A model generated the notes under the pieces. It worked only from the letters and a program-made list of their open reading frames with translations. It was not told where the DNA came from and searched no databases. A DNA stretch of 25,384 bases from a virus (lineage: Duplodnaviria > Heunggongvirae > Uroviricota > Caudoviricetes). The position numbers were made by a program, and so were the translations under genes. The stretch lies in IMG/VR virus record IMGVR_UViG_2585427773_000007, one strand, 5' to 3'. Position 1 is the stretch's first letter; each line of letters begins with the position of its first letter. Positions 2,650-24,421 of the stretch are shown here, piece by piece.

Positions 2650-5255
<2,606 letters not shown>

Positions 5256-5275
<20 letters not shown>

Positions 5276-6575: not shown

Positions 6576-6584
6576 GGGATGTTT

Positions 6585-6917
6585 ATGACGAGCAAAGAAA
6601 CCTTTACCCATTACCAGCCGCTGGGCAACAGTGACCCGGCACATACGGCAACCGCGCCCGGCGGATTGAGTGCGAAAGCGCCTGCAATGACCCCGCTGAT
6701 GCTGGACACCTCCACCCGTAAGCTGGTTGTGTGGGATGGCACCACCGACGGTGCTGCCGTTGGCATTCTGGCGGTTGCTGCTGACCAGACCAGCACCACG
6801 CTGACGTTCTACAAGTCCGGCACGTTCCGTTATGAGGATGTGCTCTGGCCGGAGGCTGCCAGCGACGAGACGAAAAAACGGACCGCGTTTGCCGGAACGG
6901 CAATCAGCATCGTTTAA
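6585..6917 (+). CDS. D: Head decoration protein gpD, 110 aa
   Basis: [27 protein letters not shown]... matches lambda D; the start is taken at the second ATG of the ORF. Confidence 0.9.
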
Positions 6918-6934
6918 CCTTATCCTTCATCACT

Positions 6935-6959
6935 AAAGGCCGCCTGTGCGGCTTTTTTT
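6935..6959 (+). terminator. GC-rich hairpin followed by a T-run between D and E (intrinsic-terminator-like attenuator)
   Basis: AAAGGCCGC-CTGT-GCGGC followed by TTTTTTT, read directly from the sequence. Confidence 0.5.
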
Positions 6960-6972
6960 ACGGGATTTTTTT

Positions 6973-7998
6973 ATGTCGATGTACACAACCGCCCAGCTGC
7001 TGGCGGCAAATGAGAAGAAATTTAAGTTTGATCCGCTGTTTCTGCGTCTCTTTTTCCGTGAGAGCTATCCCTTCACCACGGAGAAAGTCTATCTCTCACA
7101 AATTCCGGGACTGGTAAACATGGCGCTGTACGTTTCGCCGATTGTTTCCGGTGAGGTTATCCGCTCCCGTGGCGGCTCCACCTCTGAATTTACACCGGGA
7201 TATGTCAAGCCGAAGCATGAGGTGAATCCGCAGATGACCCTGCGTCGCCTGCCGGATGAAGATCCACAGAATCTGGCGGACCCGGCTTACCGCCGCCGTC
7301 GCATCATCCTGCAGAACATGCGAGACGAAGAGCTGGCCATTGCTCAGGTCGAAGAGATGCAGGCCGTTTCTGCCGTGCTTAAGGGCAAATATACCATGAC
7401 CGGTGAAGCCTTCGATCCGGTTGAAGTGGATATGGGCCGCAGTGTGGCGAACAACATCACGCAGTCCGGCGGTACGGAGTGGAGCAAGCGTGACAAGTCC
7501 ACGTATGACCCGACCGACGATATCGAAGCCTACGCGCTGAACGCCAGCGGTGTGGTGAATATCATCGTGTTTGATCCGAAAGGCTGGGCGCTGTTCCGTT
7601 CCTTCAAAGCCGTCAAGGAGAAGCTGGATACCCGTCGCGGCTCTAATTCCGAGCTGGAGACAGCGGTAAAAGACCTGGGCGAAGCGGTGTCCTATAAGGG
7701 GATGTATGGCGATACGGCGATCGTCGTGTATTCCGGACAGTACGTGGAAAACGACGTCAAAAAGAACTTCCTGCCGGACAACACGATGGTGCTGGGGAAC
7801 ACTCAGGCACGCGGTCTGCGCACCTATGGCTGCATTCAGGATGCGGACGCACAGCGCGAAGGTATTAACGCCTCTGCCCGCTACCCGAAAAACTGGGTGA
7901 CCACCGGCGATCCGGCGCGTGAGTTCACCATGATTCAGTCAGCACCGCTGATGCTGCTGGCTGACCCTGATGCGTTCGTGTCCGTACAACTGGCGTAA
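6973..7998 (+). CDS. E: Major capsid protein gpE, 341 aa
   Basis: MSMYTTAQLLAANEKKFKFDPLFLRLFF... matches lambda E; start at the internal ATG of the 350-aa ORF. Confidence 0.93.
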   Translation: MSMYTTAQLLAANEKKFKFDPLFLRLFFRESYPFTTEKVYLSQIPGLVNMALYVSPIVSGEVIRSRGGSTSEFTPGYVKPKHEVNPQMTLRRLPDEDPQNLADPAYRRRRIILQNMRDEELAIAQVEEMQAVSAVLKGKYTMTGEAFDPVEVDMGRSVANNITQSGGTEWSKRDKSTYDPTDDIEAYALNASGVVNIIVFDPKGWALFRSFKAVKEKLDTRRGSNSELETAVKDLGEAVSYKGMYGDTAIVVYSGQYVENDVKKNFLPDNTMVLGNTQARGLRTYGCIQDADAQREGINASARYPKNWVTTGDPAREFTMIQSAPLMLLADPDAFVSVQLA

Positions 7999-8000
7999 TC

Positions 8001-8025
8001 ATGGCCCTTCGGGGCCATTTTCTCT
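8001..8025 (+). terminator. Hairpin with a UUCG tetraloop and U-rich tail immediately after the E stop
   Basis: ATGGCCC-TTCG-GGGCCAT followed by TTTCTCTCT, read directly from the sequence. Confidence 0.4.
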
Positions 8026-8039
8026 CTGTGGAGGAGTCC

Positions 8040-8435
8040 ATGACGAAAGATGAACTGATTGCCCGTCTTCAGGTGCTGGGTGAGCAACTGAACCGTGATG
8101 TCAGCCTGACGGGGACGAAAGAAGAACTGGTGCTCCGTGTGGCAGAGCTGGAAGAGGAGCTTGATGACACGGATGACGCTGCTGGTCAGGACACATCTGT
8201 CAGCCCGGAAAATGCGCTGACCGGACATGAAAATGAGGTGGTATCAGCGCAGCCGGATACCGTGATTGATACGGCTGCTCTGGTCACGGTCGTGGCACTG
8301 GTGACGCTGCATACTGATGCACTTCACGCCACGCGGGATGAGCCTGTGGCATTTGTGCTGCCGGGAACGGCGTTTCGTGTCTCTGCCGGTGTGGCAGCCG
8401 AAATGACAGAACATGGCCTGGCCAGAATGCAATAA
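8040..8435 (+). CDS. FI: DNA-packaging/head assembly protein gpFI, 131 aa
   Basis: MTKDELIARLQVLGEQLNRDVSLTGTKEEL... matches lambda FI; GGAGG RBS at 8029-8033. Confidence 0.88.
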   Translation: MTKDELIARLQVLGEQLNRDVSLTGTKEELVLRVAELEEELDDTDDAAGQDTSVSPENALTGHENEVVSAQPDTVIDTAALVTVVALVTLHTDALHATRDEPVAFVLPGTAFRVSAGVAAEMTEHGLARMQ

Positions 8436-8446
8436 CGGGAGGCGCT

Positions 8447-8800
8447 GTGGCTGATTCCGATAACCTGTTCGATGCTGCCATTGCCCGCGCCGATGAAACG
8501 ATACGCGGGTACATGGGAACGTCAGCCACCATGACATCCGGTGAGCTGTCCGGTGCTGTGATACGTGGTGTTTTTGATGACCCTGAAAATATCAGCTATG
8601 CCGGACAGGGGGTGCGCGTTGAAGGCTCCAGCCCGTCCCTGTTTGTCCGGACTGATGATGTGCGGCAGCTGCGGCGTGGAGACACACTGACCATCGGCGA
8701 GGAAAACTTCTGGGTGGACCGGATTTCGCCGGATGATGGCGGAAGCTGTCATCTCTGGCTTGGGCGTGGCGTGCCGCCTGCCGTTAACCGTCGCCGCTGA
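8447..8800 (+). CDS. FII: Head-tail connector protein gpFII, 117 aa
   Basis: Length and sequence match lambda FII. Confidence 0.9.
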   Translation: MADSDNLFDAAIARADETIRGYMGTSATMTSGELSGAVIRGVFDDPENISYAGQGVRVEGSSPSLFVRTDDVRQLRRGDTLTIGEENFWVDRISPDDGGSCHLWLGRGVPPAVNRRR

Positions 8801-8811
8801 AAGGGGGATGT

Positions 8812-9390
8812 ATGGCCATAAAAGGTCTTGAGCAGGCCATTGAAAACCTCAGCCGTATCAGCAAAACGGCGGTGCCTGGTGCCGCCGCAATGGCCATTAA
8901 CCGCGTTGCTTCATCCGCGATATCGCAGTCGGCGTCACAGGTTGCCCGTGAGACAAAGGTACGCCGGAAACTGGTAAAGGAAAGGGCCAGGCTGAAAAGG
9001 GCCACGGTCAAAAATCCGCAGGCCAGAATCAAAGTTAACCGGGGGGATTTGCCCGTAATCAAGCTGGGTAATGCGCGGGTTGTCCTTTCGCGCCGCAGGC
9101 GTCGTAAAAAGGGGCAGCGTTCATCCCTGAAAGGTGGCGGCAGCGTGCTTGTGGTGGGTAACCGTCGTATTCCCGGCGCGTTTATTCAGCAACTGAAAAA
9201 TGGCCGGTGGCATGTCATGCAGCGTGTGGCCGGGAAAAACCGTTACCCCATTGATGTGGTGAAAATCCCGATGGCGGTGCCGCTGACCACGGCGTTTAAA
9301 CAAAATATTGAACGGATACGGCGTGAACGTCTTCCGAAAGAGCTGGGCTATGCGCTGCAGCATCAACTGAGAATGGTAATAAAGCGATGA
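8812..9390 (+). CDS. Z: Tail assembly/completion protein gpZ, 192 aa
   Basis: Length, position and sequence match lambda Z. Confidence 0.9.
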   Translation: MAIKGLEQAIENLSRISKTAVPGAAAMAINRVASSAISQSASQVARETKVRRKLVKERARLKRATVKNPQARIKVNRGDLPVIKLGNARVVLSRRRRRKKGQRSSLKGGGSVLVVGNRRIPGAFIQQLKNGRWHVMQRVAGKNRYPIDVVKIPMAVPLTTAFKQNIERIRRERLPKELGYALQHQLRMVIKR

Positions 9391-9782
9391 AACATACTGA
9401 ACTCCGTGCAGCCGTACTGGATGCACTGGAGAAGCATGACACCGGGGCGACGCTTTTTGATGGTCGCCCCGCTGTTTTTGATGAGGCGGATTTTCCGGCA
9501 ATTGCCGTTTATCTCACCGGCGCTGAATACACGGGCGAAGAGCTGGACAGTGATACCTGGCAGGCGGAGCTGCATATCGAAGTTTTCCTGCCTGCTCAGG
9601 TGCCGGATTCAGAGCTGGATGCGTGGATGGAGTCCCGGATTTATCCGGTGATGAGCGATGTCCCGGCACTGTCAGATTTGATCACCAGTATGGTGGCCAG
9701 CGGCTATGACTACCGGCGCGACGATGATGCGGGCCTGTGGAGTTCAGCCGATCTGACTTATGTCATTACCTATGAAATGTGA
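9387..9782 (+). CDS. U: Tail tube terminator protein gpU, 131 aa
   Basis: Length and sequence match lambda U; start overlaps the Z stop (ATGA). Confidence 0.9.
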
Positions 9783-9789
9783 GGACGAT

Positions 9790-10530
9790 ATGCCTGTACC
9801 AAATCCAGTAATGCCGGTGAAAGGGGCCGGGACCACACTGTGGGTTTATAAGGGGAGCGGTGACCCTTATGCGAATCCGCTTTCAGACGTTGACTGGTCG
9901 CGTCTGGCAAAAGTTAAAGACCTGACGCCCGGCGAACTGACCGCTGAGTCCTATGACGACAGCTATCTCGATGATGAAGATGCAGACTGGACTGCGACCG
10001 GGCAGGGGCAGAAATCTGCCGGAGATACCAGCTTCACGCTGGCGTGGATACCCGGAGAGCAGGGGCAGCAGGCGCTGCTGGCGTGGTTTAATGAAGGGGA
10101 TACCCGTGCCTATAAAATCCGCTTCCCGAACGGCACGGTCGATGTGTTCCGCGGCTGGGTCAGCAGTATCGGTAAGGCGGTGACGGCGAAGGAAGTGATC
10201 ACCCGCACGGTGAAAGTCACCAATGTGGGACGTCCGTCGATGGCAGAAGATCGCAGCACGGTAACAGCGGCAACCGGCATGACCGTGACGCCTGCCAGCA
10301 CCTCGGTGGTGAAAGGGCAGAGCACCACGCTGACCGTGGCCTTCCAGCCGGAGGGCGTAACCGACAAGAGCTTTCGTGCGGTGTCTGCGGATAAAACAAA
10401 AGCCACCGTGTCGGTCAGTGGTATGACCATCACCGTGAAAGGTGTTGCTGCAGGCAAGGTCAACATTCCGGTTGTATCCGGTAATGGTGAGTTTGCTGCG
10501 GTTGCAGAAATCACCGTCACCGCCAGTTAA
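9790..10530 (+). CDS. V: Major tail tube protein gpV, 246 aa, with a C-terminal Ig-like (Big_2-type) domain
   Basis: [30 protein letters not shown]... matches lambda V; C-terminal beta-rich TVT.../[19 protein letters not shown] segment typical of Big_2. Confidence 0.9.
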
Positions 10531-10545
10531 TCCGGAGAGTCAGCG

Positions 10546-10968
10546 ATGTTCCTGAAAACCGAATCATTTGAATATAACGGTGTGAGCGTCACGCTTTCTG
10601 AACTGTCAGCCCTGCAGCGAATTGAGCATCTCGCCCTGCTGAAACGGCAGGCAGAACAGGCGGAGTCAGACAGCAACCGGAAGTTTACTGTGGAAGACGC
10701 CATCAGAACCGGCGCGTTTCTGGTGGCGATGTCCCTGTGGCATAACCATCCGCAGAAGACGCAGATGCCGTCCATGAATGAAGCCGTTAAACAGATTGAG
10801 CAGGAAGTGCTTACCACCTGGCCTACAGAGGCAATTTCTCATGCTGAAAACGTGGTGTACCGGCTGTCCGGTATGTATGAGTTTGTGGTGAATGATGCCC
10901 CTGAACAGGCAGAGGACGCCGGGCCTGCAGAGCCTGTTTCTGCGGGAAAGTGTTCGACGGTGAGCTGA
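10546..10968 (+). CDS. G: Tail assembly chaperone gpG, 140 aa
   Basis: MFLKTESFEYNGVSVTLSELSALQRIEHL... matches lambda G. Confidence 0.9.
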   Translation: MFLKTESFEYNGVSVTLSELSALQRIEHLALLKRQAEQAESDSNRKFTVEDAIRTGAFLVAMSLWHNHPQKTQMPSMNEAVKQIEQEVLTTWPTEAISHAENVVYRLSGMYEFVVNDAPEQAEDAGPAEPVSAGKCSTVS

Positions 10969-11384
10969 GTTTTGCCCTGAAACTGGCGCGCGAGATGGGG
11001 CGACCCGACTGGCGTGCCATGCTTGCCGGGATGTCATCCACGGAGTATGCCGACTGGCACCGCTTTTACAGTACCCATTATTTTCATGATGTTCTGCTGG
11101 ATATGCACTTTTCCGGGCTGACGTACACCGTGCTCAGCCTGTTTTTCAGCGATCCGGATATGCATCCGCTGGATTTCAGTTTGCTGAACCGGCGTGAGGC
11201 TGACGAAGAGCCTGAAGATGATGTGCTGATGCAGAAAGCGGCAGGGCTTGCCGGAGGCGTCCGCTTTGGCCCGGACGGGAATGAAGTTATCCCCGCTTCC
11301 CCGGATGTGGCGGACATGACGGAGGATGACGTAATGCTGATGACAGTATCAGAAGGGATCGCAGGAGGAGTCCGGTATGGCTGA
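10546..11384 (+). CDS. GT: Tail assembly chaperone gpGT, the -1 frameshift fusion product (G frame to 10950, then T frame from 10950)
   Basis: The T-frame ORF (10950-11384) has no plausible independent start or RBS and begins exactly at the slippery site, as in lambda. Confidence 0.78.
10944..10950 (+). other. Programmed -1 ribosomal frameshift slippery heptamer G_GGA_AAG that generates the G-T fusion
   Basis: GGGAAAG is in the zero frame of G as G GGA AAG, 6 codons before the G stop; the -1 frame continues open as the T ORF to 11384. Confidence 0.8.
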
Positions 11385-13938
11385 ACCGGTAGGCGATCTG
11401 GTCGTTGATTTGAGTCTGGATGCGGCCAGATTTGACGAGCAGATGGCCAGAGTCAGGCGTCATTTTTCCGGTACGGAAAGTGATGCGAAAAAAACAGCGG
11501 CAGTCGTTGAACAGTCGATGAACCGGCAGGCGCTGGCTGCACAGAAAGCGGGAATTTCCGTCGGGCAGTATAAAGCCGCCATGCGTATGCTGCCTGCGCA
11601 GTTCACTGACGTGGCCACGCAGCTTGCAGGCGGGCAAAGTCCGTGGCTGATCCTGCTGCAACAGGGGGGTCAGGTGAAGGACTCCTTCGGCGGGATGATC
11701 CCCATGTTCCGGGGGCTTGCCGGTGCGATCACCCTGCCGATGGTGGGGGCCACCTCGCTGGCGGTGGCGACCGGTGCGCTGGCGTATGCCTGGTATCAGG
11801 GCAACTCAACCCTGTCCGATTTCAACAAAACGCTGGTCCTTTCCGGCAATCAGGCCGGGCTGACGGCAGATCGTATGCTGGTCCTGTCCAGAGCCGGGCA
11901 GGCGGCAGGGCTGACGTTTAACCAGACCAGCGAGTCACTCAGCGCACTGGTTAAGGCGGGGGTAAGCGGTGAGGCTCAGATTGCGTCCATCAGCCAGAGT
12001 GTGGCGCGTTTCTCCTCTGCATCCGGCGTGGAGGTGGACAAGGTCGCTGAAGCCTTCGGGAAGCTGACCACTGACCCGACGTCGGGGCTGACGGCGATGG
12101 CGCGCCAGTTCCATAACGTGACGGCGGAGCAGATTGCGTATGTTGCTCAGTTGCAGCGTTCCGGCGATGAGGCCGGGGCATTGCAGGCAGCGAACGAGGC
12201 CGCAACGAAAGGGTTTGATGACCAGACCCGCCGCCTGAAAGAGAACATGGGCACGCTGGAGACCTGGGCAGACAGGACAGCGCGGGCATTCAAATCCATG
12301 TGGGATGCGGTGCTGGATATTGGTCGTCCTGATACCGCGCAGGAGATGTTGATTAAGGCAGAGGCTGCGTTTAAGAAAGCAGACGACATCTGGAATCTGC
12401 GCAAGGATGATTATTTTGTTAACGATGAAGCGCGGGCGCGTTACTGGGATGATCGTGAAAAGGCCCGTCTTGCGCTTGAAGCCGCCCGAAAGAAGGCTGA
12501 GCAGCAGAGTCAACAGGACAAAAATGCGCAGCAGCAGAGCGATACCGAAGCGTCACGGCTGAAATATACCGAAGAGGCACAGAAGGCTTACGAACGCCTG
12601 CAGACACCGCTGGAGAAATATACCGCCCGTCAGGAGGAACTGAATAAGGCACTGAAAGACGGGAAAATCCTGCAGGCAGATTACAACACGCTGATGGCGG
12701 CGGCGAAAAAGGATTATGAAGCGACGCTGAAAAAGCCGAAACAGTCCGGCGTGAAGGTGTCTGCGGGCGATCGTCAGGAAGACAGTGCTCATGCTGCCCT
12801 GCTGACGCTTCAGGCTGAACTCCGGACGCTGGAGAAGCATGCCGGAGCAAATGAGAAAATCAGCCAGCAGCGCCGGGATTTGTGGAAGGCGGAGAGTCAG
12901 TTCGCGGTACTGGAGGAGGCGGCGCAACGTCGCCAGCTGTCTGCACAGGAGAAATCCCTGCTGGCGCATAAAGATGAGACGCTGGAGTACAAACGCCAGC
13001 TGGCTGCACTTGGCGACAAGGTTACGTATCAGGAGCGCCTGAACGCGCTGGCGCAGCAGGCGGATAAATTCGCACAGCAGCAACGGGCAAAACGGGCCGC
13101 CATTGATGCGAAAAGCCGGGGGCTGACTGACCGGCAGGCAGAACGGGAAGCCACGGAACAGCGCCTGAAGGAACAGTATGGCGATAATCCGCTGGCGCTG
13201 AATAACGTCATGTCAGAGCAGAAAAAGACCTGGGCGGCTGAAGACCAGCTTCGCGGGAGCTGGATGGCAGGCCTGAAGTCCGGCTGGAGTGAGTGGGAAG
13301 AGAGCGCCACGGACAGTATGTCGCAGGTTAAAAGTGCAGCCACGCAGACCTTTGATGGTATTGCACAGAATATGGCGGCGATGCTGACCGGCAGTGAGCA
13401 GAACTGGCGCAGCTTCACCCGTTCCGTGCTGTCCATGATGACAGAAATTCTGCTTAAGCAGGCAATGGTGGGGATTGTCGGGAGTATCGGCAGCGCCATT
13501 GGCGGGGCTGTTGGTGGCGGCGCATCCGCGTCAGGCGGTACAGCCATTCAGGCCGCTGCGGCGAAATTCCATTTTGCGACCGGGGGATTTACGGGAACCG
13601 GCGGCAAATATGAGCCAGCGGGGATTGTTCACCGTGGTGAATTTGTCTTCACGAAGGAGGCAACCAGCCGGATTGGCGTGGGGAATCTTTACCGGCTGAT
13701 GCGCGGCTATGCCACCGGCGGTTATGTCGGTACACCGGGCAGCATGGCAGACAGCCGGTCGCAGGCGTCCGGGACGTTTGAGCAGAATAACCATGTGGTG
13801 ATTAACAACGACGGCACGAACGGGCAGATAGGTCCGGCTGCTCTGAAGGCGGTGTATGACATGGCCCGCAAGGGTGCCCGTGATGAAATTCAGACACAGA
13901 TGCGTGATGGTGGCCTGTTCTCCGGAGGTGGACGATGA
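11377..13938 (+). CDS. H: Tail tape measure protein gpH, 853 aa
   Basis: Identical length to lambda H; coiled-coil-rich centre and Gly-rich C-terminal region; overlaps the T stop and the M start. Confidence 0.93.
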   Translation: MAEPVGDLVVDLSLDAARFDEQMARVRRHFSGTESDAKKTAAVVEQSMNRQALAAQKAGISVGQYKAAMRMLPAQFTDVATQLAGGQSPWLILLQQGGQVKDSFGGMIPMFRGLAGAITLPMVGATSLAVATGALAYAWYQGNSTLSDFNKTLVLSGNQAGLTADRMLVLSRAGQAAGLTFNQTSESLSALVKAGVSGEAQIASISQSVARFSSASGVEVDKVAEAFGKLTTDPTSGLTAMARQFHNVTAEQIAYVAQLQRSGDEAGALQAANEAATKGFDDQTRRLKENMGTLETWADRTARAFKSMWDAVLDIGRPDTAQEMLIKAEAAFKKADDIWNLRKDDYFVNDEARARYWDDREKARLALEAARKKAEQQSQQDKNAQQQSDTEASRLKYTEEAQKAYERLQTPLEKYTARQEELNKALKDGKILQADYNTLMAAAKKDYEATLKKPKQSGVKVSAGDRQEDSAHAALLTLQAELRTLEKHAGANEKISQQRRDLWKAESQFAVLEEAAQRRQLSAQEKSLLAHKDETLEYKRQLAALGDKVTYQERLNALAQQADKFAQQQRAKRAAIDAKSRGLTDRQAEREATEQRLKEQYGDNPLALNNVMSEQKKTWAAEDQLRGSWMAGLKSGWSEWEESATDSMSQVKSAATQTFDGIAQNMAAMLTGSEQNWRSFTRSVLSMMTEILLKQAMVGIVGSIGSAIGGAVGGGASASGGTAIQAAAAKFHFATGGFTGTGGKYEPAGIVHRGEFVFTKEATSRIGVGNLYRLMRGYATGGYVGTPGSMADSRSQASGTFEQNNHVVINNDGTNGQIGPAALKAVYDMARKGARDEIQTQMRDGGLFSGGGR

Positions 13939-14264
13939 AGACCTTCCGCTGGAAAGTGAAACCCGGTATGGATGTGGCTTCGGTCCCTTCTGTAAGAAAG
14001 GTGCGCTTTGGTGATGGCTATTCTCAGCGAGCGCCTGCCGGGCTGAATGCCAACCTGAAAACGTACAGCGTGACGCTTTCTGTCCCCCGTGAGGAGGCCA
14101 CGGTACTGGAGTCGTTTCTGGAAGAGCACGGGGGCTGGAAATCCTTTCTGTGGACGCCGCCTTATGAGTGGCGGCAGATAAAGGTGACCTGCGCAAAATG
14201 GTCGTCGCGGGTCAGTATGCTGCGTGTTGAGTTCAGCGCAGAGTTTGAACAGGTGGTGAACTGA
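13935..14264 (+). CDS. M: Tail tip assembly protein gpM, 109 aa
   Basis: Length, position and sequence match lambda M. Confidence 0.9.
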   Translation: MKTFRWKVKPGMDVASVPSVRKVRFGDGYSQRAPAGLNANLKTYSVTLSVPREEATVLESFLEEHGGWKSFLWTPPYEWRQIKVTCAKWSSRVSMLRVEFSAEFEQVVN

Positions 14265-14962
14265 TGCAGGATATCCGGCAGGAAACACTGAATGAATGCA
14301 CCCGTGCGGAGCAGTCGGCCAGCGTGGTGCTCTGGGAAATCGACCTGACAGAGGTCGGTGGAGAACGTTATTTTTTCTGTAATGAGCAGAACGAAAAAGG
14401 TGAGCCGGTCACCTGGCAGGGGCGACAGTATCAGCCGTATCCCATTCAGGGGAGCGGTTTCGAACTGAATGGCAAAGGCACCAGTACGCGCCCCACGCTG
14501 ACGGTTTCTAACCTGTACGGTATGGTCACCGGGATGGCGGAAGATCTGCAGAGTCTGGTCGGCGGAACGGTGGTCCGGCGTAAGGTTTACGCCCGTTTTC
14601 TGGATGCGGTGAACTTCGTCAACGGAAACAGTTACGCCGATCCGGAGCAGGAGGTGATCAGCCGCTGGCGCATTGAGCAGTGCAGCGAACTGAGCGCGGT
14701 GAGTGCCTCCTTTGTACTGTCCACGCCGACGGAAACGGATGGCGCTGTTTTTCCGGGACGTATCATGCTGGCCAACACCTGCACCTGGACCTATCGCGGT
14801 GATGAGTGCGGTTATAGCGGTCCGGCTGTCGCGGATGAATATGACCAGCCGACGTCCGATATCACGAAGGATAAATGCAGCAAATGCCTGAGCGGTTGTA
14901 AGTTCCGCAATAACGTCGGCAACTTTGGCGGCTTCCTTTCCATTAACAAACTTTCGCAGTAA
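14264..14962 (+). CDS. L: Tail tip protein gpL, 232 aa, with a C-terminal Cys cluster
   Basis: Length and sequence match lambda L; C-terminal CxxC...C cluster (CTWTYRGDECGY...CSKCLSGC). Confidence 0.9.
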   Translation: MQDIRQETLNECTRAEQSASVVLWEIDLTEVGGERYFFCNEQNEKGEPVTWQGRQYQPYPIQGSGFELNGKGTSTRPTLTVSNLYGMVTGMAEDLQSLVGGTVVRRKVYARFLDAVNFVNGNSYADPEQEVISRWRIEQCSELSAVSASFVLSTPTETDGAVFPGRIMLANTCTWTYRGDECGYSGPAVADEYDQPTSDITKDKCSKCLSGCKFRNNVGNFGGFLSINKLSQ

Positions 14963-14967
14963 ATCCC

Positions 14968-15711
14968 ATGACACAGACAGAATCAGCGATTCTGGCGCAC
15001 GCCCGGCGATGTGCGCCAGCGGAGTCGTGCGGCTTCGTGGTAAGCACGCCGGAGGGGGAAAGATATTTTCCCTGCGTGAATATCTCCGGTGAGCCGGAGG
15101 CGTATTTCCGTATGTCGCCGGAAGACTGGCTGCAGGCAGAAATGCAGGGTGAGATTGTGGCGCTGGTCCACAGCCACCCCGGTGGTCTGCCCTGGCTGAG
15201 TGAGGCCGACCGGCGGCTGCAGGTGCAGAGTGATTTGCCGTGGTGGCTGGTCTGCCGGGGGACGATTCATAAGTTCCGCTGTGTGCCGCATCTCACCGGG
15301 CGGCGCTTTGAACACGGGGTGACGGACTGTTACACGCTGTTCCGGGATGCTTATCATCTGGCGGGGATTGAGATGCCGGATTTTCATCGCGAGGATGACT
15401 GGTGGCGTCACGGTCAGAATCTCTATCTGGATAATCTGGAGGCCACAGGGCTGTATCAGGTGCCGTTGTCAGCGGCACAACCGGGCGATGTGCTGCTGTG
15501 CTGTTTTGGTTCATCGGTGCCGAATCATGCCGCCATTTACTGTGGTGATGGCGAGCTGCTGCACCATATTCCTGAACAACTGAGCAAACGAGAGAGGTAT
15601 ACCGACAAATGGCAGCGACGCACACACTCCCTCTGGCGTCACCGGGAATGGCACGCATCTGCCTTTACGGGGATTTACAACGATTTGGCCGCCGCATCGA
15701 CCTTCGTGTGA
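14968..15711 (+). CDS. K: Tail tip assembly protein gpK, full 247-aa ORF with JAMM/MPN+ and NlpC/P60 motifs (the classical 199-aa lambda K would start at ATG 15112)
   Basis: HSHPGGLPWLSEAD gives H-x-H-x7-S-x2-D (nt 15169-15210) with a candidate catalytic Glu 49 residues upstream; downstream Cys/His/His residues (DCYTLF, HAAIY, LLHH) consistent with an NlpC/P60 triad. Confidence 0.82.
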   Translation: MTQTESAILAHARRCAPAESCGFVVSTPEGERYFPCVNISGEPEAYFRMSPEDWLQAEMQGEIVALVHSHPGGLPWLSEADRRLQVQSDLPWWLVCRGTIHKFRCVPHLTGRRFEHGVTDCYTLFRDAYHLAGIEMPDFHREDDWWRHGQNLYLDNLEATGLYQVPLSAAQPGDVLLCCFGSSVPNHAAIYCGDGELLHHIPEQLSKRERYTDKWQRRTHSLWRHREWHASAFTGIYNDLAAASTFV

Positions 15712-16280
15712 AAACGGGGGCTGAAGCCATTCGGGCGCTGGCCACACAGCTCCCGGCGTTTCGTCAGAAACTGAGCGACGGCTGGTATCAGGTACGGATT
15801 GCCGGGCAGGATGTCAGCACGTCCGGATTAACGGCGCAGTTACATGAGACTCTGCCTGATGGCGCTGTGATTCATATTGTTCCCAGAGTCGCCGGGGCCA
15901 AGTCAGGTGGCGTATTCCAGATTGTCCTGGGAGCAGCCGCCATTGCCGGATCATTCTTTACCGCCGGAGCCACCCTTACAGCATGGGGGGCAGCCATTGT
16001 GGCCGGTGGTATGACCGGCATCCTGTTTTCTCTCGGTGCCAGTATGGTGCTCGGTGGTGTGGCGCAGATGCTGGCACCGAAAGCCAGGACGCCCACGGCA
16101 GCAAGTACAGATAACGGAAAACAGAACACCTATTTCTCCTCCCTGGATAACATGGTTGCCCAGGGCAATGTTCTGCCTGTTCTGTACGGTGAAATGCGCG
16201 TGGGGTCACGCGTGGTTTCTCAGGAGATCAGCACGGCAGACGAAGGGGATGGTGGTCAGGTTGTGGTGATTGGTCGCTGA
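15609..16280 (+). CDS. I: Tail tip assembly protein gpI, 223 aa
   Basis: MAATHTLPLASPGMARICLYGDLQRFGRR... matches lambda I; 103-nt out-of-frame overlap with the K 3' end. Confidence 0.9.
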   Translation: MAATHTLPLASPGMARICLYGDLQRFGRRIDLRVKTGAEAIRALATQLPAFRQKLSDGWYQVRIAGQDVSTSGLTAQLHETLPDGAVIHIVPRVAGAKSGGVFQIVLGAAAIAGSFFTAGATLTAWGAAIVAGGMTGILFSLGASMVLGGVAQMLAPKARTPTAASTDNGKQNTYFSSLDNMVAQGNVLPVLYGEMRVGSRVVSQEISTADEGDGGQVVVIGR

Positions 16281-16298
16281 TGCAAAATGTTTTATGTG

Positions 16299-16320
16299 AA
16301 ACCGCCTGCGGGCGGTTTTA
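16299..16320 (+). terminator. Hairpin plus T-run between I and J
   Basis: AAACCGCC-TGCG-GGCGGTTTTA, read directly from the sequence. Confidence 0.4.
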
Positions 16321-16340
16321 TCGTTTATGGAGCGTGAGGA

Positions 16341-19300
16341 ATGGGTAAAGGCAGCAGTAAGGGGCATACCCCGCGCGAAGCGAAGGACAACCTGAAGTCC
16401 ACGCAGCTGCTGAGTGTGATCGATGCCATCAGCGAAGGGCCGGTTGAAGGTCCGGTGGACGGATTAAAAAGCGTGCTGCTGAACAGTACGCCGGTGCTGG
16501 ACAGTGAGGGGAATACCAATATATCCGGCGTCACGGTGGTGTTCCGGGCCGGTGAGCAGGAGCAGACACCGCCGGAGGGATTTGAATCCTCCGGCTCCGA
16601 GACGGTGCTGGGTACAGAAGTGAAATATGACACGCCGATCACCCGGACCATCACGTCGGCAAACATTGACCGTCTGCGTTTTACTTTCGGTGTACAGGCA
16701 CTGGTGGAAACCACCTCAAAGGGGGACAGGAATCCATCGGAAGTCCGCCTGCTGGTTCAGATACAGCGTAATGGTGGCTGGGTGACGGAAAAAGACATCA
16801 CCATTAAGGGTAAAACCACCTCACAGTATCTGGCCTCGGTGGTGGTGGATAACCTGCCGCCGCGCCCGTTCAATATCCGGATGCGCAGGATGACGCCGGA
16901 CAGCACCACAGACCAGCTGCAGAACAAAACGCTCTGGTCGTCATACACCGAAATTATCGATGTGAAACAGTGCTACCCGAACACGGCACTGATCGGCGTG
17001 CAGGTGGACTCGGAGCAGTTCGGCAGCCAGCAGGTGAGCCGTAATTATCATCTTCGCGGGCGCATTCTGCAGGTGCCGTCGAACTATAACCCGCAGACGC
17101 GGCAATACAGTGGTATCTGGGACGGAACGTTTAAACCAGCATACAGCAACAACATGGCCTGGTGTCTGTGGGATATGCTGACCCACCCGCGCTACGGCAT
17201 GGGAAAACGTCTTGGTGCGGCGGATGTGGATAAATGGGCGCTGTATGTCATCGGCCAGTACTGCGACCAGTCAGTGCCGGACGGCTTTGGCGGCACGGAG
17301 CCGCGCATCACCTGTAATGCGTACCTGACCACACAGCGCAAGGCGTGGGATGTGCTCAGTGATTTCTGCTCGGCGATGCGCTGTATGCCGGTATGGAACG
17401 GGCAGACGCTGACGTTCGTGCAGGACCGACCGTCGGATAAGGTGTGGGCCTATAACCGCAGTAATGTGGTGATGCCGGATGATGGCGCGCCGTTCCGCTA
17501 CAGTTTCAGCGCCCTGAAAGACCGCCATAATGCCGTTGAGGTGAACTGGATTGACCCGAACAACGGCTGGGAGACGGCGACAGAGCTTGTTGAAGATACG
17601 CAGGCCATTGCCCGTTACGGTCGTAACGTCACGAAGATGGATGCCTTTGGCTGTACCAGCCGGGGGCAGGCGCACCGCGCCGGGCTGTGGCTGATTAAAA
17701 CGGAACTGCTGGAAACGCAGACCGTGGACTTCAGCGTGGGTGCCGAAGGGCTTCGCCATGTGCCGGGGGATGTCATTGAAATCTGCGATGATGACTATGC
17801 GGGTATCAGCACCGGCGGGCGCGTGCTGGCGGGGAACAGCCAGACCCGGACGCTGACGCTCGACCGTGAAATCACGCTGCCATCCTCCGGTACCACGCTG
17901 ATAAGCCTGGTTGACGGTCAGGGTAATCCGGTCAGCGTGGAGGTCCAGTCCGTCACCGACGGCGTGAAGGTAAAAGTTAGCCGTGTTCCTGACGGCGTTG
18001 CCGGATACAGCGTGTGGGGGCTGAAGCTGCCGACGCTGCGCCAGCGCCTGTTCCGCTGCGTGAGTATCCGTGAGAACGACGACGGTATGTATGCCATCAC
18101 CGCCGTGCAGCATGTACCGGAAAAAGAGGCCATCGTGGATAACGGGGCGCACTTTGACGGCGACCAGAGCGGCACGGTGAATGGTGTCACGCCGCCAGCG
18201 GTGCAGCACCTGACTGCCGAAGTCACCGCAGGCAGCGGGGAATATCAGGTGCTGGCGCGCTGGGACACGCCGAAGGTGGTGAAGGGCGTGAGCTTCCTGC
18301 TCCGTCTGACCGTAACAGCGGATGACGGCAGTGAGCGGCTGGTCAGCACGGCCCGGACGACGGAAACCACATACCGCTTCACGCAACTGGCGCTGGGGAA
18401 CTACAGGCTGACAGTCCGGGCGGTAAATGCGTGGGGGCAGCAGGGCGATCCGGCGTCGGTATCGTTCCGGATTGCCGCACCGGCAGCACCGTCGAAGATT
18501 GAGCTGACACCGGGCTATTTTCAGATAACCGCCACGCCGCATCTTGCGGTTTATGATCCGACGGTACAGTTTGAGTTCTGGTTCTCGGAAAAGCGGATTG
18601 CGGATATCAGGCAGGTTGAAACCAGCGCGCGTTATCTTGGTACGGCACTGTACTGGATAGCCGCCAGTATCAATATCAAACCGGGCCATGATTATTACTT
18701 TTATATCCGCAGTGTGAACACCGTTGGCAAATCGGCATTCGTGGAGGCTGTCGGTCGGGCGAGCGATGATGCGGAAGGTTACCTGGATTTTTTCAAAGGC
18801 GAGATAACCGAATCCCATCTTGGCAAGAAGCTGCTGGAAAAAGTCGAGCTGACGGAGGATAACGCCAGCAGACTGGAGGAGTTTTCGAAAGAGTGGAAAG
18901 ACGCCAACGATAAATGGAATGCCATGTGGGGCGTCAAAATTGAGCAGACCGAAGACGGCAAACATTATGTCGCGGGTATTGGCCTCAGTATGGAGGACAC
19001 GGAGGAAGGCAAACTGAGTCAGTTTCTGGTTGCAGCAGACAGGATTGCGATGATTAATCCTGCGAATGGCAACACAAAGCCGATGTTTGTTGGTCAGGGC
19101 GATCAGATATTCATGAATGAAGTGTTCCTGAAACGCCTGACGGCCCCCACCATTACCAGCGGCGGTAATCCTCCGGCATTTTCCCTGACATCAGACGGGA
19201 GACTGACGGCGAAAAATGCGGATATCAGTGGCAGTGTGAATGCGAACTCAGGAACGCTCAACAATGTCACGATTAACCAGAACTGTACGATTAAGGGCAT

Positions 19301-19754
19301 GCTGGAGGCGACCCAGGTCAGAGGGGATTTCGTTAAAGCTGTATCAAAAGCCTTCCCGAAAAAAGTCGGTACGTGGGGTAACACGGAAACACCAAACGGT
19401 ACGGTTACAGTCACCATCAGCGATGATCATAACTTTGACCGCCAGATTATTATTCCGCCCATTATTTTTAACGGTATAGCGTATGACGATCCGGGGAGCG
19501 GAAATAACCCAGGAGGCACGCGATACACGGGTTATGGTTTTGAAGTTCGCAAAAACGGCGTATTAATCGCATCCAGAGAAACTAAAGGGGCCATTCCCGG
19601 TAGTTACAGTGCAGTTATTGATATGCCGAGTGGCAGGGGAAGCGTCACTCTGGAGTTTAAGATTTTCCAGAAAGGCAATCAGGGGGCAGGCAATATCACC
19701 GACTGTACGGTGATTGTGACCAAAAAAGCCGCTTCCGGCATCAGTATTCGTTGA
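16341..19754 (+). CDS. J: Central tail fibre / host specificity protein gpJ, 1137 aa
   Basis: Size, position and N-terminus match lambda J; GAGGA RBS 6 nt upstream. Confidence 0.93.
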
Positions 19755-19772
19755 AATATTTATAACCCCAAT

Positions 19773-19800
19773 AAAGGGCGTCAGGAATGACGCCTTTTTT
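19773..19800 (+). terminator. Rho-independent terminator after J
   Basis: AAAGGGCGTCA-GGAA-TGACGCC followed by TTTTTT. Confidence 0.6.
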
Positions 19801-19824
19801 ATTGCAGAAAAGCGAGAGGTAATT

Positions 19825-20424
19825 ATGCGTAAAGTTTGTGCAGCAATTTTGTCCGCAGCCATTTGTCTGGCCGTATCCGGTGCGCCTGCATGGGCGTCTG
19901 AACATCAGTCCACGCTGAGCGCGGGGTATCTTCATGCCTCGACGAACGTCCCCGGCAGTGATGATCTGAACGGGATTAACGTGAAATACCGTTATGAGTT
20001 TACGGACACACTGGGGCTGGTGACGTCATTCAGCTATGCAGGAGACAAGAATCGCCAGCTGACCCGTTACAGCGATACCCGCTGGCATGAAGATTCCGTT
20101 CGTAACCGCTGGTTCAGCGTAATGGCGGGGCCGTCTGTGCGCGTGAATGAATGGTTCAGCGCGTATGCGATGGCGGGTGTAGCTTACAGCCGTGTGTCGA
20201 CTTTCTCCGGGGATTATCTTCGCGTAACTGACAACAAGGGGAAAACGCACGATGTGCTGACCGGAAGTGATGACGGTCGCCACAGCAACACGTCTCTGGC
20301 GTGGGGGGCTGGCGTGCAGTTTAACCCGACCGAATCCGTGGCCATTGATATTGCTTATGAAGGCTCCGGCAGTGGTGACTGGCGCACTGACGGTTTCATC
20401 GTGGGTGTCGGTTATAAATTCTGA
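19825..20424 (+). CDS. lom: Lom outer-membrane beta-barrel protein (Ail/Lom/PagC family), 199 aa with signal peptide
   Basis: N-terminal signal peptide (MRKVCAAILSAAICLAVSGAPAWA), C-terminal aromatic residue (...GVGYKF) and alternating beta-strand pattern; lambda lom position between J and stf. Confidence 0.88.
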   Translation: MRKVCAAILSAAICLAVSGAPAWASEHQSTLSAGYLHASTNVPGSDDLNGINVKYRYEFTDTLGLVTSFSYAGDKNRQLTRYSDTRWHEDSVRNRWFSVMAGPSVRVNEWFSAYAMAGVAYSRVSTFSGDYLRVTDNKGKTHDVLTGSDDGRHSNTSLAWGAGVQFNPTESVAIDIAYEGSGSGDWRTDGFIVGVGYKF

Positions 20425-20450
20425 TTAGCCAGGTAACACAGTGTTATGAC

Positions 20451-20477
20451 AGCCCGCCGGTTCAGGCGGGCTTTTTT
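20451..20477 (+). terminator. Rho-independent terminator after lom
   Basis: AGCCCGCC-GGTTCAG-GCGGGCT followed by TTTTTT. Confidence 0.6.
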
Positions 20478-20488
20478 GTGGGGTGAAT

Positions 20489-23326
20489 ATGGCAGTAAAG
20501 ATTTCAGGTGTACTGAAAGACGGCACAGGAAAACCGGTACAGAACTGCACAATCCAGCTGAAAGCAAAACGTAACAGCACCACGGTGGTGGTGAACACGC
20601 TGGCCTCAGAAAATCCGGATGAAGCCGGGCGTTACAGCATGGACGTTGAGTACGGGCAGTACAGCGTTATTCTGTTGGTGGAGGGATTCCCGCCGTCACA
20701 TGCCGGGACCATCACCGTGTATGAAGATTCCCGGCCCGGTACGCTGAATGATTTTCTCGGTGCCATGACGGAGGATGATGCCCGTCCGGAGGCACTGCGC
20801 CGTTTTGAGCTGATGGTGGAAGAGGTGGCGCGTAACGCGTCCGCGGTGGCACAGAACACGGCAGCCGCGAAGAAGTCAGCCAGCGATGCCAGCACATCAG
20901 CCCGTGAGGCGGCAACCCATGCGACTGATGCTGCAGGCTCAGCACGCGCAGCCAGCACGTCAGCCGGACAGGCCGCGTCGTCGGCTCAGTCAGCGTCTTC
21001 CAGCGCAGGAACGGCATCGACAAAGGCCCGTGAAGCAGCAAAAAGTGCTGCTGCTGCAGAGTCCTCAAAAAGCGCGGCAACTACCAGTGCCGGTGCGGCG
21101 AAAACGTCAGAAACGAATGCGGCAGCGTCACAACAATCAGCAGCCACTTCTGCATCCGCCGCGACCACGAAGGCGTCAGAAGCAGCCACCTCAGCCCGGG
21201 ATGCGGCGGCCTCAAAAGAGGCAGCGAAATCATCAGAAACGAACGCATCATCAAGCGCCAGTAGTGCCGCTTCCTCGGCAACGGCGGCAGGCAATTCCGC
21301 GAAGGCGGCAAAGACGTCTGAGACAAACGCCAGGTCTTCTGAAACGGCAGCGGGACAGAGCGCCTCGGCTGCGGCAGGCTCAAAAACAGCGGCTGCGTCG
21401 TCTGCCAGCGCCGCGTCAACAAGTGCCGGGCAGGCCTCAGCCAGTGCCACCGCCGCCGGAAAATCGGCAGAAAGCGCCGCATCATCCGCTTCAACAGCCA
21501 CAACGAAGGCTGGCGAAGCCACTGAGCAGGCCAGCGCAGCAGCGAGGTCAGCTTCCGCAGCGAAGACATCCGAAACGAACGCGAAAGCGTCGGAAACCAG
21601 CGCAGAATCCTCAAAAACGGCTGCCGCATCGTCAGCCAGTTCGGCGTCGTCATCGGCCTCATCGGCGTCTGCTTCAAAAGATGAGGCGACCAGACAAGCG
21701 TCAGCAGCGAAGGGCAGCGCCACGACGGCATCCACGAAGGCAACAGAGGCTGCTGGCAGTGCGACGGCGGCATCTCAGAGCAAAGTTGCTGCTGAATCCG
21801 CGGCAACGCGTGCCGAAACAGCGGCAAAACGGGCAGAGGATATTGCTGATGCCGTATCTCTGGAAGATGCGAGTACGACGAAAAAAGGTGTGGTTCAGCT
21901 CAGTAGCGCCACTAACAGCCCGTCTGAAACGCTGGCTGCGACACCAAAAGCGGTTAAGGCGGTAATGGATGAAACGAACAAGAAAGCGCCCTTAAATAGT
22001 CCTGCACTGACCGGAACGCCAACAACGCCAACTGCGCCAAAAGGTACTAATAATACTCAGATCGCAAGTACGGCTTATGTGATGGCCGCGATTGCCGCCC
22101 TTGTAGACTCGTCGCCTGACGCACTGAATACGCTGAACGAGTTAGCGGCGGCGCTGGGCAACGACCCGAATTTTGCGACCACCATGACTAACGCGCTTGC
22201 GGGTAAGCAACCGAAAGATGCCACCCTGACGGCGCTGGCCGGGCTTGCTACTGCGGCAGACAGGTTTCCGTATTTTACGGGGAATGATGTCGCCAGCCTG
22301 GCAACCCTGACAAAAGTCGGGCGGGATATTCTTGCGAAATCGACCGTTGCTGCCGTTATCGAATACCTCGGTTTACAGGAAACGGTAAATCAGGCTTCTG
22401 GCGCATTACAGAAAAACCAGAACGGCGCAGATATTCCGGGAAAAGATACCTTCACCAAAAACATTGGTGCCTGCCGCGCATATAGCGCATGGCTGAATAT
22501 TGGTGGCGATAGTCAGGTCTGGACAACTGCGCAATTTATTTCGTGGCTGGAGAGTCAGGGGGCATTTAACCATCCTTACTGGATGTGCAAAGGCTCATGG
22601 GCTTATGCAAATAATAAGGTTATTACAGATACAGGTTGCGGAAATATTTGTCTTGCAGGTGCTGTGGTGGAAGTTATTGGCACTCGCGGCGCAATGACCA
22701 TACGCGTTACTACGCCGAGCACGTCCAGCGGTGGCGGAATTACTAACGCTCAATTCACTTATATTAATCATGGTGATGCTTACGCTCCTGGCTGGCGACG
22801 AGACTACAACACGAAAAACCAGCAGCCTGCATTTGCTTTAGGGCAAACAGGACGCAGGGTCGCAAATGATAAAGCTGTTGGCTGGAACTGGAATAGCGGT
22901 GTTTATGATGCAGATATCAGTGGTGCATCGACATTAATCCTCCACTTCAATATGAATGCGGGGAGTTGCCCTGCTGTACAGTTCCGCGTGAATTACAGGA
23001 ACGGCGGGATTTTTTATCGTTCAGCGCGTGATGGTTATGGCTTTGAAGCTAACTGGTCAGAGTTTTACACCACAACACGCAAACCCTCTGCGGGGGATGT
23101 TGGTGCATATACGCAGGCAGAATGTAACTCAAGGTTTATTACAGGTATTCGCCTTGGCGGTCTGTCATCTGTTCAGACATGGAAAGGCCCCGGCTGGTCT
23201 GACAGGTCAGGTTATGTCGTTACGGGTTCAGTTAACGGAAACCGTGCTGAATTAATTGATACAACTCAGGCAAGGCCAATTCAGTATTGCATTAATGGGA
23301 CGTGGTATAACGCGGGGAGTATTTAA
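20489..23326 (+). CDS. stf: Side tail fibre protein Stf, 945 aa from ATG 20489: lambda-Stf-like N-terminus with an Ala/Ser-rich tract, then a Mu S / P1 S-like variable C-terminal domain
   Basis: MAVKISGVLKDGTGKPVQNCTIQLKA... matches the lambda Stf N-terminus; a gix-like site sits in-frame at 22356-22383; the C-terminus ends ...INGTWYNAGSI, mirrored by the inverted alternative exon. Confidence 0.88.
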   Translation: MAVKISGVLKDGTGKPVQNCTIQLKAKRNSTTVVVNTLASENPDEAGRYSMDVEYGQYSVILLVEGFPPSHAGTITVYEDSRPGTLNDFLGAMTEDDARPEALRRFELMVEEVARNASAVAQNTAAAKKSASDASTSAREAATHATDAAGSARAASTSAGQAASSAQSASSSAGTASTKAREAAKSAAAAESSKSAATTSAGAAKTSETNAAASQQSAATSASAATTKASEAATSARDAAASKEAAKSSETNASSSASSAASSATAAGNSAKAAKTSETNARSSETAAGQSASAAAGSKTAAASSASAASTSAGQASASATAAGKSAESAASSASTATTKAGEATEQASAAARSASAAKTSETNAKASETSAESSKTAAASSASSASSSASSASASKDEATRQASAAKGSATTASTKATEAAGSATAASQSKVAAESAATRAETAAKRAEDIADAVSLEDASTTKKGVVQLSSATNSPSETLAATPKAVKAVMDETNKKAPLNSPALTGTPTTPTAPKGTNNTQIASTAYVMAAIAALVDSSPDALNTLNELAAALGNDPNFATTMTNALAGKQPKDATLTALAGLATAADRFPYFTGNDVASLATLTKVGRDILAKSTVAAVIEYLGLQETVNQASGALQKNQNGADIPGKDTFTKNIGACRAYSAWLNIGGDSQVWTTAQFISWLESQGAFNHPYWMCKGSWAYANNKVITDTGCGNICLAGAVVEVIGTRGAMTIRVTTPSTSSGGGITNAQFTYINHGDAYAPGWRRDYNTKNQQPAFALGQTGRRVANDKAVGWNWNSGVYDADISGASTLILHFNMNAGSCPAVQFRVNYRNGGIFYRSARDGYGFEANWSEFYTTTRKPSAGDVGAYTQAECNSRFITGIRLGGLSSVQTWKGPGWSDRSGYVVTGSVNGNRAELIDTTQARPIQYCINGTWYNAGSI
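20850..21850 (+). repeat. Low-complexity Ala/Ser/Thr-rich coding repeat tract within stf (iterated ...AAKTSETNA... / ...SASSAS... units)
   Basis: GC-rich GCN/TCN codon repeats visible in the translation; they leave two other frames stop-free (spurious ORFs 20886-21965 +, 20986-21735 -, 21081-21827 -). Confidence 0.8.
22356..22383 (+). other. Candidate gix/pix-type recombination (crossover) site for a serine DNA invertase, embedded in stf at the constant/variable junction
   Basis: TTATCGAATACCTCGGTTTACAGGAAAC differs at only about 2 of 28 positions from the Mu gixL sequence as I recall it, has imperfect dyad symmetry around the central TC, and encodes the ...IEYLGLQE... junction. Confidence 0.6.
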
Positions 23327-23328
23327 CG

Positions 23329-23862
23329 ATGATGCACTTAAAAAACATTACTGCTGGCAACCCTAAAACAAAAGAGCAATACCAGCTAACAAAGCAATTT
23401 AACATCAAATGGCTTTATTCAGATGATGGAAAAAACTGGTATGAGGAACAAAAGAATTTCCAGCCAGACACTTTGAAAATGGTCTATGACCATAACGGCG
23501 TTATTATTTGTATTGAAAAGGATGTTTCAGCAATTAATCCAGAGGGTGCAAGCGTCGTTGAATTACCTGATATTACAGCAAATCGCCGGGCTGATATTTC
23601 GGGGAAATGGATGTTCAAAGATGGCGTAGTGATAAAGCGAACTTATACCGAGGAAGAGCAGAGGCAACAAGCGGAAAATGAAAAGCAAAGCCTGTTGCAA
23701 CTTGTCAGGGATAAAACCCAGCTATGGGACTCACAGCTACGGCTGGGCATCATTTCCGACGAGAATAAACAAAAATTAACCGAGTGGATGCTCTATGCGC
23801 AGAAAGTCGAATCTACAGACACTTCCGGCCTGCCAGTAACGTTTCCCGAACAACCAGAATGA
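23329..23862 (+). CDS. tfa: Tail fibre assembly protein Tfa (Mu U-like), 177 aa
   Basis: Starts 3 nt after the stf stop; about 55% identical to the inverted paralogue at 23891-24418 (shared [28 protein letters not shown] motifs). Confidence 0.85.
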   Translation: MMHLKNITAGNPKTKEQYQLTKQFNIKWLYSDDGKNWYEEQKNFQPDTLKMVYDHNGVIICIEKDVSAINPEGASVVELPDITANRRADISGKWMFKDGVVIKRTYTEEEQRQQAENEKQSLLQLVRDKTQLWDSQLRLGIISDENKQKLTEWMLYAQKVESTDTSGLPVTFPEQPE

Positions 23863-23865
23863 GAG

Positions 23866-23892
23866 AAGGCCCGCTATCGGGCCTTAATTTTT
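23866..23892. terminator. Hairpin between the convergent tfa genes, with a T-run on the + strand
   Basis: AAGGCCCG-CTAT-CGGGCCTT followed by AATTTTT. Confidence 0.5.
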
Positions 23893-24418: not shown

Positions 24419-24421
24419 AAA

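Follow-up and report, generated by a model that had tools for sequence, protein, structure and literature searches.

Gene K of the lambda-like siphophage analysed here very probably encodes a 247-residue, non-virion assembly enzyme that starts at the ATG at position 14968, combines a JAB domain with an NlpC/P60 domain and acts in the cleavage of gpI, the 199-codon K of the lambda reference being an artefact. The biology of K is already established: its metalloprotease motif was listed in 2003, its domain architecture was described in 2006, and 247-aa annotations have appeared in relatives since 2000. The use of the present finding lies in curation, namely in an explicit account of the 199-aa K as a frameshift artefact: a single base missing from the founding reference has carried a wrong gene model through four decades.

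According to the ORF list and Pfam profiles, the window (the whole stretch of DNA analysed, 25,384 nt) comprises the block of tail-tip genes from a lambda-like siphophage, with lambda-like head and tail genes extending over approximately positions 2670-21960 (Table 1). K is located between L and I and upstream of J, which is its place in the lambda-type H-M-L-K-I-J module. Its start lies 5 nt after the end of L, which terminates with a TAA at 14960-14962, and its end overlaps gene I by 103 nt, an overlap of the same length as in lambda. The L-K-I DNA shares 97.5% identity with phage lambda; with other lambdoid phages, the identity reaches 99%. The TMP-M-L-K-I-J gene order is kept in distant loci, where K is 34-40% identical and its start is -1 to +11 nt away from the stop codon of L. 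The K gene of phage phi330 is preceded by an anti-repressor gene (Ant) and a hairpin in place of L, and an AGGAG of its own lies 6 nt ahead of the upstream ATG (MLYSNILAHARRCAPAESCGF...). A scan for promoters and terminators around K revealed nothing relevant above the shuffled expectation.

Table 1. Coordinates of K, its predicted domains and residues, and neighbouring features in the window
Feature	Position	Strand	Basis and remarks
Gene H (tape measure)	11377-13938		ORF list and Pfam
Gene M	between H and L in window gene order		ORFs and Pfam
Gene L (tail tip protein)	14264..14962	+	Pfam Phage_tail_L, E = 3e-101
Gene K, full-length ORF	14968..15711	+	247 codons and stop; predicted 28.3 kDa
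JAB/MPN+ (JAMM metalloprotease) domain	14968..15282	+	residues about 1-105; Pfam PF14464, AlphaFold2 (AF2), Foldseek
E19 codon, candidate general-base Glu (E-x-C-G)	15022..15024	+	alignment, conservation
SD-like GGAGG	15096..15100	+	11 nt before ATG 15112, within codons E42-P43-E44-A45
G absent from lambda reference	15102..15102	+	after J02459/NC_001416 nt 14266, ten bases before ATG 14276
Internal ATG (Met49), 'classical' lambda K start	15112..15114	+	alignment to NC_001416
H68-S-H70-x7-S78-x2-D81, putative zinc-binding JAMM motif	15169..15210	+	regex match
NlpC/P60 (C40 papain-like) peptidase domain	15298..15639	+	residues 111-224; Pfam PF00877
Candidate triad C121, H187, H199	15328-15330, 15526-15528, 15562-15564	+	homolog conservation
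Gene I	15609..16280	+	Pfam Lambda_tail_I, E = 5e-28
gpI (probable substrate), ubiquitin-like beta-grasp	15648-15899	+	residues 14-97, then Gly-rich linker and C-terminal plug
Gene J	16341-19754		ORF list and Pfam

Reading frame of K and the base absent from the lambda reference

The first-pass annotation of this DNA, made from the letters alone, had described a 247-codon ORF at the K locus and had regarded it as a likelier functional product than the protein starting at the traditional lambda ATG. The ORF finder and re-translation recovered the same frame, which runs from the ATG at 14968 to a TGA at 15709-15711; the nearest upstream in-frame stop is a TAA at 14944, with ATG 14968 as the first start codon to follow. 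The internal ATG at 15112 had been correctly matched to the traditional start, as it aligns base for base with position 14276 of NC_001416, where the 199-aa protein begins. The preference for the longer ORF is supported by family-wide conservation, by the non-conservation of Met49, by third-position substitutions, by synteny and by the SD sequence of the upstream start in phi330. We conclude that the true length of K is 247 codons; the SD-like GGAGG leaves room for a minor short isoform that may be made from ATG 15112 in lambda itself.

The library scan (1.8 billion representatives) identified 2769 homologs of K. Conservation was analysed in a sample of 99 full-length homologs with at most 62% identity, and the N-termini of these proteins are within a few residues of the start of the 247-aa K. 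Residues upstream of Met49 count among the best-conserved positions of the family (G22 and N38, 100%; E19, 98%; F47, 96%; C21, 93%; P17, 91%), and the Met49 position itself is occupied by Ile in 64% of the sample and by Met in 13%. Nucleotide substitutions in the segment 14968-15111 follow the same frame: relative to phage JLK-2012 they are distributed as 2/1/14 over the three codon positions (binomial p = 5e-5), and in three relatives pooled, 32 of 43 substitutions are at third positions (p = 4e-8). Two other ORFs touching this segment (14925-15092 on the plus strand and 14983-15411 on the minus strand) were rejected as coding, since the substitutions fall on K-frame third positions. In protein databases, the 247-aa protein belongs to clusters that hold thousands of sequences and bear the names 'C40 family peptidase' or 'phage tail protein'; 199-aa clusters also exist.

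The textbook 199-codon K goes back to the 1982 lambda reference, which lacks one G upstream of the 'classical' start, and is an annotation artefact of that reference. At the point of the indel, the aligned NC_001416/J02459 sequence is CCGGAGGC-TATTTCC versus CCGGAGGCGTATTTCC in the window, lambda imm21, phage 434 and JLK-2012; in a longer view, the reference reads CCGGAGGC-TATTTCCGTATG, and the window and the same three phages read CCGGAGGCGTATTTCCGTATG. Because the reference is without this G, the first 45 codons, including that of the putative catalytic Glu, are out of frame with the remainder of the gene: the reference ORF that starts at ATG 14133, the counterpart of ATG 14968, leaves the frame after codon 45 and ends at 76 codons. 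Repair of the G in silico restores a 247-aa protein with four differences from that of the window, all of them beyond residue 147. The family PHROG 7305 (76 positions, unknown function) matches K residues 1-76, and its length equals that of the frameshifted 76-codon remnant of the reference.

A 200-nt query from the reference was compared with its 60 best-matching records. Full identity (100%) over 200 nt is limited to four of these 60 (J02459 with its RefSeq copy NC_001416, OR474059 and OR974322). The remaining records of the 60 cover 201 nt, except for mEp332 (PV340541), which is one base short owing to a different deletion. Among the 201-nt records are independently sequenced lambda genomes (KT232076, LC730321, PV340536), DE3, lambda imm21/imm434 and HK629/HK630. 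The two further lambda records without the G, OR474059 and OR974322, possibly sequenced independently, count against the artefact reading. The deletion in mEp332 is located in a G-run at codons 29-31 and is likely a homopolymer sequencing error; if real, it would represent a viable phage without an in-frame E19. In view of this deletion, the G-run at 15053-15060 was also considered as a programmed frameshift site and rejected, as it is not an X-XXY-YYZ heptamer in the K frame.

An insertion of this G is listed in sequence notes for commercial lambda. A literature search for an explicit revision of the lambda K start returned the MutaMouse variant table alone. The notation '14266 C>CG' was reported in whole-genome sequencing of a lambda gt10 transgene (PMC6760142). 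The 247-aa K is annotated in VT1-Sakai, 434, JLK-2012 (RefSeq), PhiR46_1 and recent automated annotations, and in the record of phage 434 it carries a note beginning 'This start has ...'. The G is present in the records of HK630 and lambda imm21, yet the 199-aa annotation was copied into them. J02459 and NC_001416, with these copied entries the most-used lambda records, present K minus its first 48 residues, including the candidate catalytic Glu. The NlpC/P60 domain alone is visible in analyses that were built on the 199-aa entry, and a 2020 review gives K 'a peptidase domain, residues 52-182 out of 199'. For cloning, mutating or modelling gpK, or for work on gpK-gpI processing, we advise the use of the 247-codon gene from 5 nt after L.

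With regard to ribosome binding, the sequence alone favours the internal start, because a GGAGG precedes ATG 15112 (anti-SD duplex of -9.5 kcal/mol, among the strongest 3% of the window ATGs) and no SD sequence was found before ATG 14968 (anti-SD duplex of +0.7 kcal/mol). The same two features explain why the annotators of 1982-83 accepted ATG 15112, and the GGAGG is annotated as an RBS in the lambda imm21 record. Its spacing to the ATG is 10-11 nt, longer than optimal. Since the start at 14968 is without an SD sequence, we infer that initiation there probably proceeds by translational coupling to L. In phage JLK-2012, the codon at the Met49 position is ATT, and the GGAGG is retained without a following ATG. 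As Met49 is unconserved and JLK-2012 keeps the motif in this setting, the upkeep of GGAGG points to the E-P-E-A codons and not to a ribosome site.

The JAB and NlpC/P60 domains

The Pfam search of the 247-aa form identified both domains. The Prok-JAB profile (PF14464; gathering cut-off of 25 bits) aligns with residues 3-104 over profile positions 3-112 of 114 (52.3 bits, E = 6e-14), and the Glu, His, His, Ser and Asp residues pointed out from the sequence fall on the JAMM active-site columns. The outcome named in the first-pass annotation as refuting, a failure of profile searches to place them there, thus did not occur. In the 199-aa form, the match is reduced to profile positions 63-112 and to 23.3 bits, under the cut-off. 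The motif H-S-H-x7-S-x2-D is present exactly where the first-pass annotation had placed it (HSHPGGLPWLSEAD), and the pattern H.H.{7}S..D has one occurrence in the six reading frames of the window. The candidate Glu that was said to precede it by 49 residues, upstream of the classical start, is E19 in APAESCGF, 90 nt upstream of 15112. This agrees with the early-strand Glu about 45-50 residues before HxH that is typical of the class, E19 being 49 residues before H68. All residues of the motif are well-conserved in the 99 homologs (H68, 100%; H70, 99%; S78, 92%, with Thr in another 7%; D81, 100%).

Comparison with PDB sequences by HMMER aligned E19-x-C21-G22 with the E-x-C-G of 2KKS, 2KCQ and Pyrococcus furiosus JAMM1 (5LD9/5LDA), and the HSH...S..D of K with the zinc motif of the same three proteins. 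In AfJAMM, zinc is bound by H67, H69 and D80, the water on the zinc is positioned by E22 of strand beta2, and the ancillary Ser is S77 (PMC300881). By analogy with this enzyme, H68, H70 and D81 of K would bind zinc, E19 would activate water, and S78 would correspond to S77 as the ancillary Ser of the active site.

The AlphaFold2 model of K, built on 67 diverse sequences, has a pLDDT of 96.7 and a pTM of 0.91. Its N-terminal domain contains a helix (residues 3-15) and strands at residues 21-27, 30-36 and 62-69; H68 and H70 close the last of these strands, and S78 and D81 open a helix at 79-88. The predicted MPN alpha/beta fold was recovered by Foldseek, with a target-normalised TM-score of 0.67-0.69 to PfJAMM1 (5LD9/5LDA, alone and with SAMP2) and with CSN5, Rpn11 and AMSH among the other matches of this domain. 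In the model, residues 1-48 belong inside the MPN fold, and a K protein without them would be predicted to have this fold minus a helix, two strands and the putative catalytic Glu.

The C-terminal half had been noted to contain NlpC/P60-like Cys/His/His residues, and here the profile search went further than the individual residues. PF00877 (gathering cut-off of 23 bits) matches residues 111-224 over its whole length (profile positions 1-105 of 105, 49.2 bits, E = 6e-13). The catalytic Cys, His and polar residues expected of this class correspond to D120-C121 (C121 opening the model helix 121-131), H187 and H199/H200, which are 94-100% conserved (C121, 99%; H187, 99%; H199, 98%; H200, 94%); C121, H187 and H199 form the candidate triad of a cysteine peptidase. 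Foldseek matches of this domain include MepS/Spr, LytE and the Acd autolysins of Clostridioides.

Proposed function and alternative readings

We propose that K is a 28-kDa enzyme with two protease domains, translated from ATG 14968 and probably coupled to L in its translation. The JAB domain would most likely act as a deubiquitinase-like peptidase on gpI, the product of the gene immediately downstream. During tail-tip assembly, the N-terminal ubiquitin-like beta-grasp of gpI would be cut from its C-terminal plug domain, and gpK would then leave. The candidate substrate is taken from earlier publications. A 2003 paper already listed the JAMM motif for lambda K (PMC300881). [quoted passage not shown] Cryo-EM and mass spectrometry found virions without gpK, with gpI ordered in the tail tip at residues 135-223 only (PMC10721106). 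[quoted passage not shown]

The GGAGG before ATG 15112 is the starting point for two-isoform readings, in which the 247-aa K is made via coupling to L and a 199-aa, NlpC/P60-only product with a possibly separate role is made from ATG 15112. We consider such a pair unlikely. The anti-SD duplex at 15112 contrasts with its absence at 14968, the NlpC/P60 domain, with its beginning at residue 111, would be intact in a product from residue 49, and NlpC/P60-only variants of K are found in some prophages (Iyer et al. 2006, PMC1779556). However, Ile predominates at the Met49 position, JLK-2012 has ATT there despite its GGAGG, and the spacing is above the optimum; the product from residue 49 would, in the model, have half of an MPN fold and be unlikely to fold, and a search for experimental evidence of two isoforms found none. 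A bolder form of this idea, confined to lambda and its nearest relatives, is that an abundant 199-aa protein is also made from the K cistron and has a job of its own, for example in the conversion of gpH to gpH*. We regard it as more doubtful still; if true, the 'classical' K would exist as a second product and not purely as an artefact. Finally, it is extremely improbable that the classical annotation is right, with K starting at ATG 15112 as a 199-aa protein and the 144 nt before it being an untranslated spacer or an incidental frame. This annotation is given in J02459/NC_001416, HK630 and lambda imm21 (with the RBS), and it is in line with the strong SD-like sequence and with the 199-aa database clusters, but the reference annotation was built on a sequence minus one base. 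In addition, the upstream 48 residues hold the most conserved positions of the family together with the third-position bias, the JAB match falls under the Pfam cut-off without them, and most homologs have no Met at the proposed start. The classical reading is thus largely refuted by the comparative data, in favour of the 247-codon K.

Many MPN proteins are non-catalytic scaffolds, and the JAB domain of K could by the same token be devoid of activity, a reading that we find very improbable. It would be consistent with mEp332, which would lose E19 if its frameshift were real, and with the suggestion, also raised by Iyer et al. in 2006, that NlpC/P60 is a possible processor of gpI (PMC1779556). 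On the other hand, MPN- proteins are without the motif, whereas K has E19, H68, H70, S78 and D81, and the meeting summary credits gpK with both the domain and the cleavage. These five residues are 92-100% conserved down to 34% identity, a level of conservation that points to selection on catalysis.

Comparison with known systems

The gpK of lambda (J02459 AAA96551/NP_040598, 199 aa) is the same gene in a close relative, at the same position between L and I; its record holds residues 49-247 only, whereas the window has the intact 247-codon frame. Another counterpart is PA0639/PyoF8 of the F-type pyocins, which occupies the same cluster position, is absent from mature particles and is needed for tail-tip formation. 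The neighbouring gpI homolog is seen from residue 127 onward only. The F-type pyocin is a tailocin, whereas K belongs to a phage.

The NlpC/P60 domain of K resembles E. coli MepS/Spr and B. subtilis LytE/CwlO in its full Pfam match, in its conserved Cys-His-His residues and, in the model, in its papain-like fold. Unlike these proteins, K is cytoplasmic and has no signal peptide or cell-wall-binding module. A peptidoglycan substrate for K is unlikely, because the protein is cytoplasmic and absent from virions.

The JAB domain is closest in its features to the prokaryotic JAMM peptidases. The residues E22/H67/H69/S77/D80 of AfJAMM and E19/H68/H70/S78/D81 of K have nearly the same spacing, and AfJAMM (1R5X/1OI0), Pyrococcus JAMM1 (5LD9/5LDA), the Haloferax desampylase HvJAMM1 and DSY2949 (2KKS) likewise possess the E-x-C-G...H-S-H-x7-S-x2-D arrangement. 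K scores 29.7 bits against the NCBIfam desampylase equivalog, far below its cut-off of 130 bits, and is therefore a relative and not an orthologue of the desampylases. The prokaryotic JAMM peptidases and K share an MPN fold of minimal size (about 105 residues) and a small beta-grasp partner ending in Gly. In contrast to these peptidases, K is fused to NlpC/P60 and dedicated to virion assembly, and its presumed substrate is a linear fusion within gpI, as opposed to the isopeptide conjugate of the deubiquitinase-like peptidases.

Upstream part of gene K

Residues 1-76 of the K product (window 14968-15195) match the 76-position profile of PHROG 7305, a family of unknown function. The family may be made up of pieces of K that are truncated or frameshifted, because its profile is exactly as long as the frameshifted 76-codon ORF that precedes the annotated K gene in the lambda reference. 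A one-base deletion within the upstream part of K is present in phage mEp332 (PV340541.1, locus positions 350-360), which has GGAGGGG vs GGAGGGGG at window 15053-15060; in the annotation of that record K is 233 aa long, with an out-of-frame N-terminus. The deletion could be either a homopolymer sequencing error or a genuine frameshift in a viable phage.

In the Stx phage relative phi330 (PV189401.1, locus positions 1-880), an anti-repressor gene (Ant), with a terminator-like hairpin after it, replaces L, the usual neighbor of K. DNA similarity between phi330 and the window begins ∼25 nt inside K. The boundary of the long-form K gene is thus the site of a mosaic junction in phi330.

Start of gene I and its overlap with K

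Annotations of the gene I start disagree between records, the discrepancy involving the K/I overlap (window 15609-15711) and position 15708. The classical ATG is accompanied by a Shine-Dalgarno-like AGAGG (-9.3 kcal/mol), and recent automated records use a downstream GTG. The Pfam Lambda_tail_I alignment, which covers the ubiquitin-like domain, begins at residue 14 of the 223-aa product, and thus the 190-aa call would cost the beta-grasp its first strands.

Gene I start calls and ORFs in the outer parts of the window
Feature	Window position	Strand	Description
ORF	1-1572	-	
ORF	1939-2616	-	
Gene I, classical start	ATG 15609	+	223 aa; 103-nt overlap with K
Gene I, alternative start	GTG 15708	+	190 aa; GTGTGA overlap with K stop
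199-aa ORF	before 20483		like J, upstream of the 947-aa ORF
947-aa ORF	20483-23326	+	with the 177-aa ORF, at the position of lambda side tail fibre and tail fibre assembly genes
177-aa ORF	23329-23862	+	see 947-aa ORF
ORF after 177-aa ORF	23891-24418	-	
Last ORF of window	24422-25384	-	

Outer parts of the window

The lambda-like phages that match the remainder of the window do not cover its first 2.7 kb (1-2670). As this part is uncovered and carries ORFs on the minus strand, the beginning of the window may belong to another module or to flanking DNA of the host. Yersinia phages and Peduovirus are among the whole-window matches. At the opposite end, downstream of J, the layout of ORFs at 20483-25384 resembles an invertible tail-fibre segment of the Mu, P1 or e14 type.
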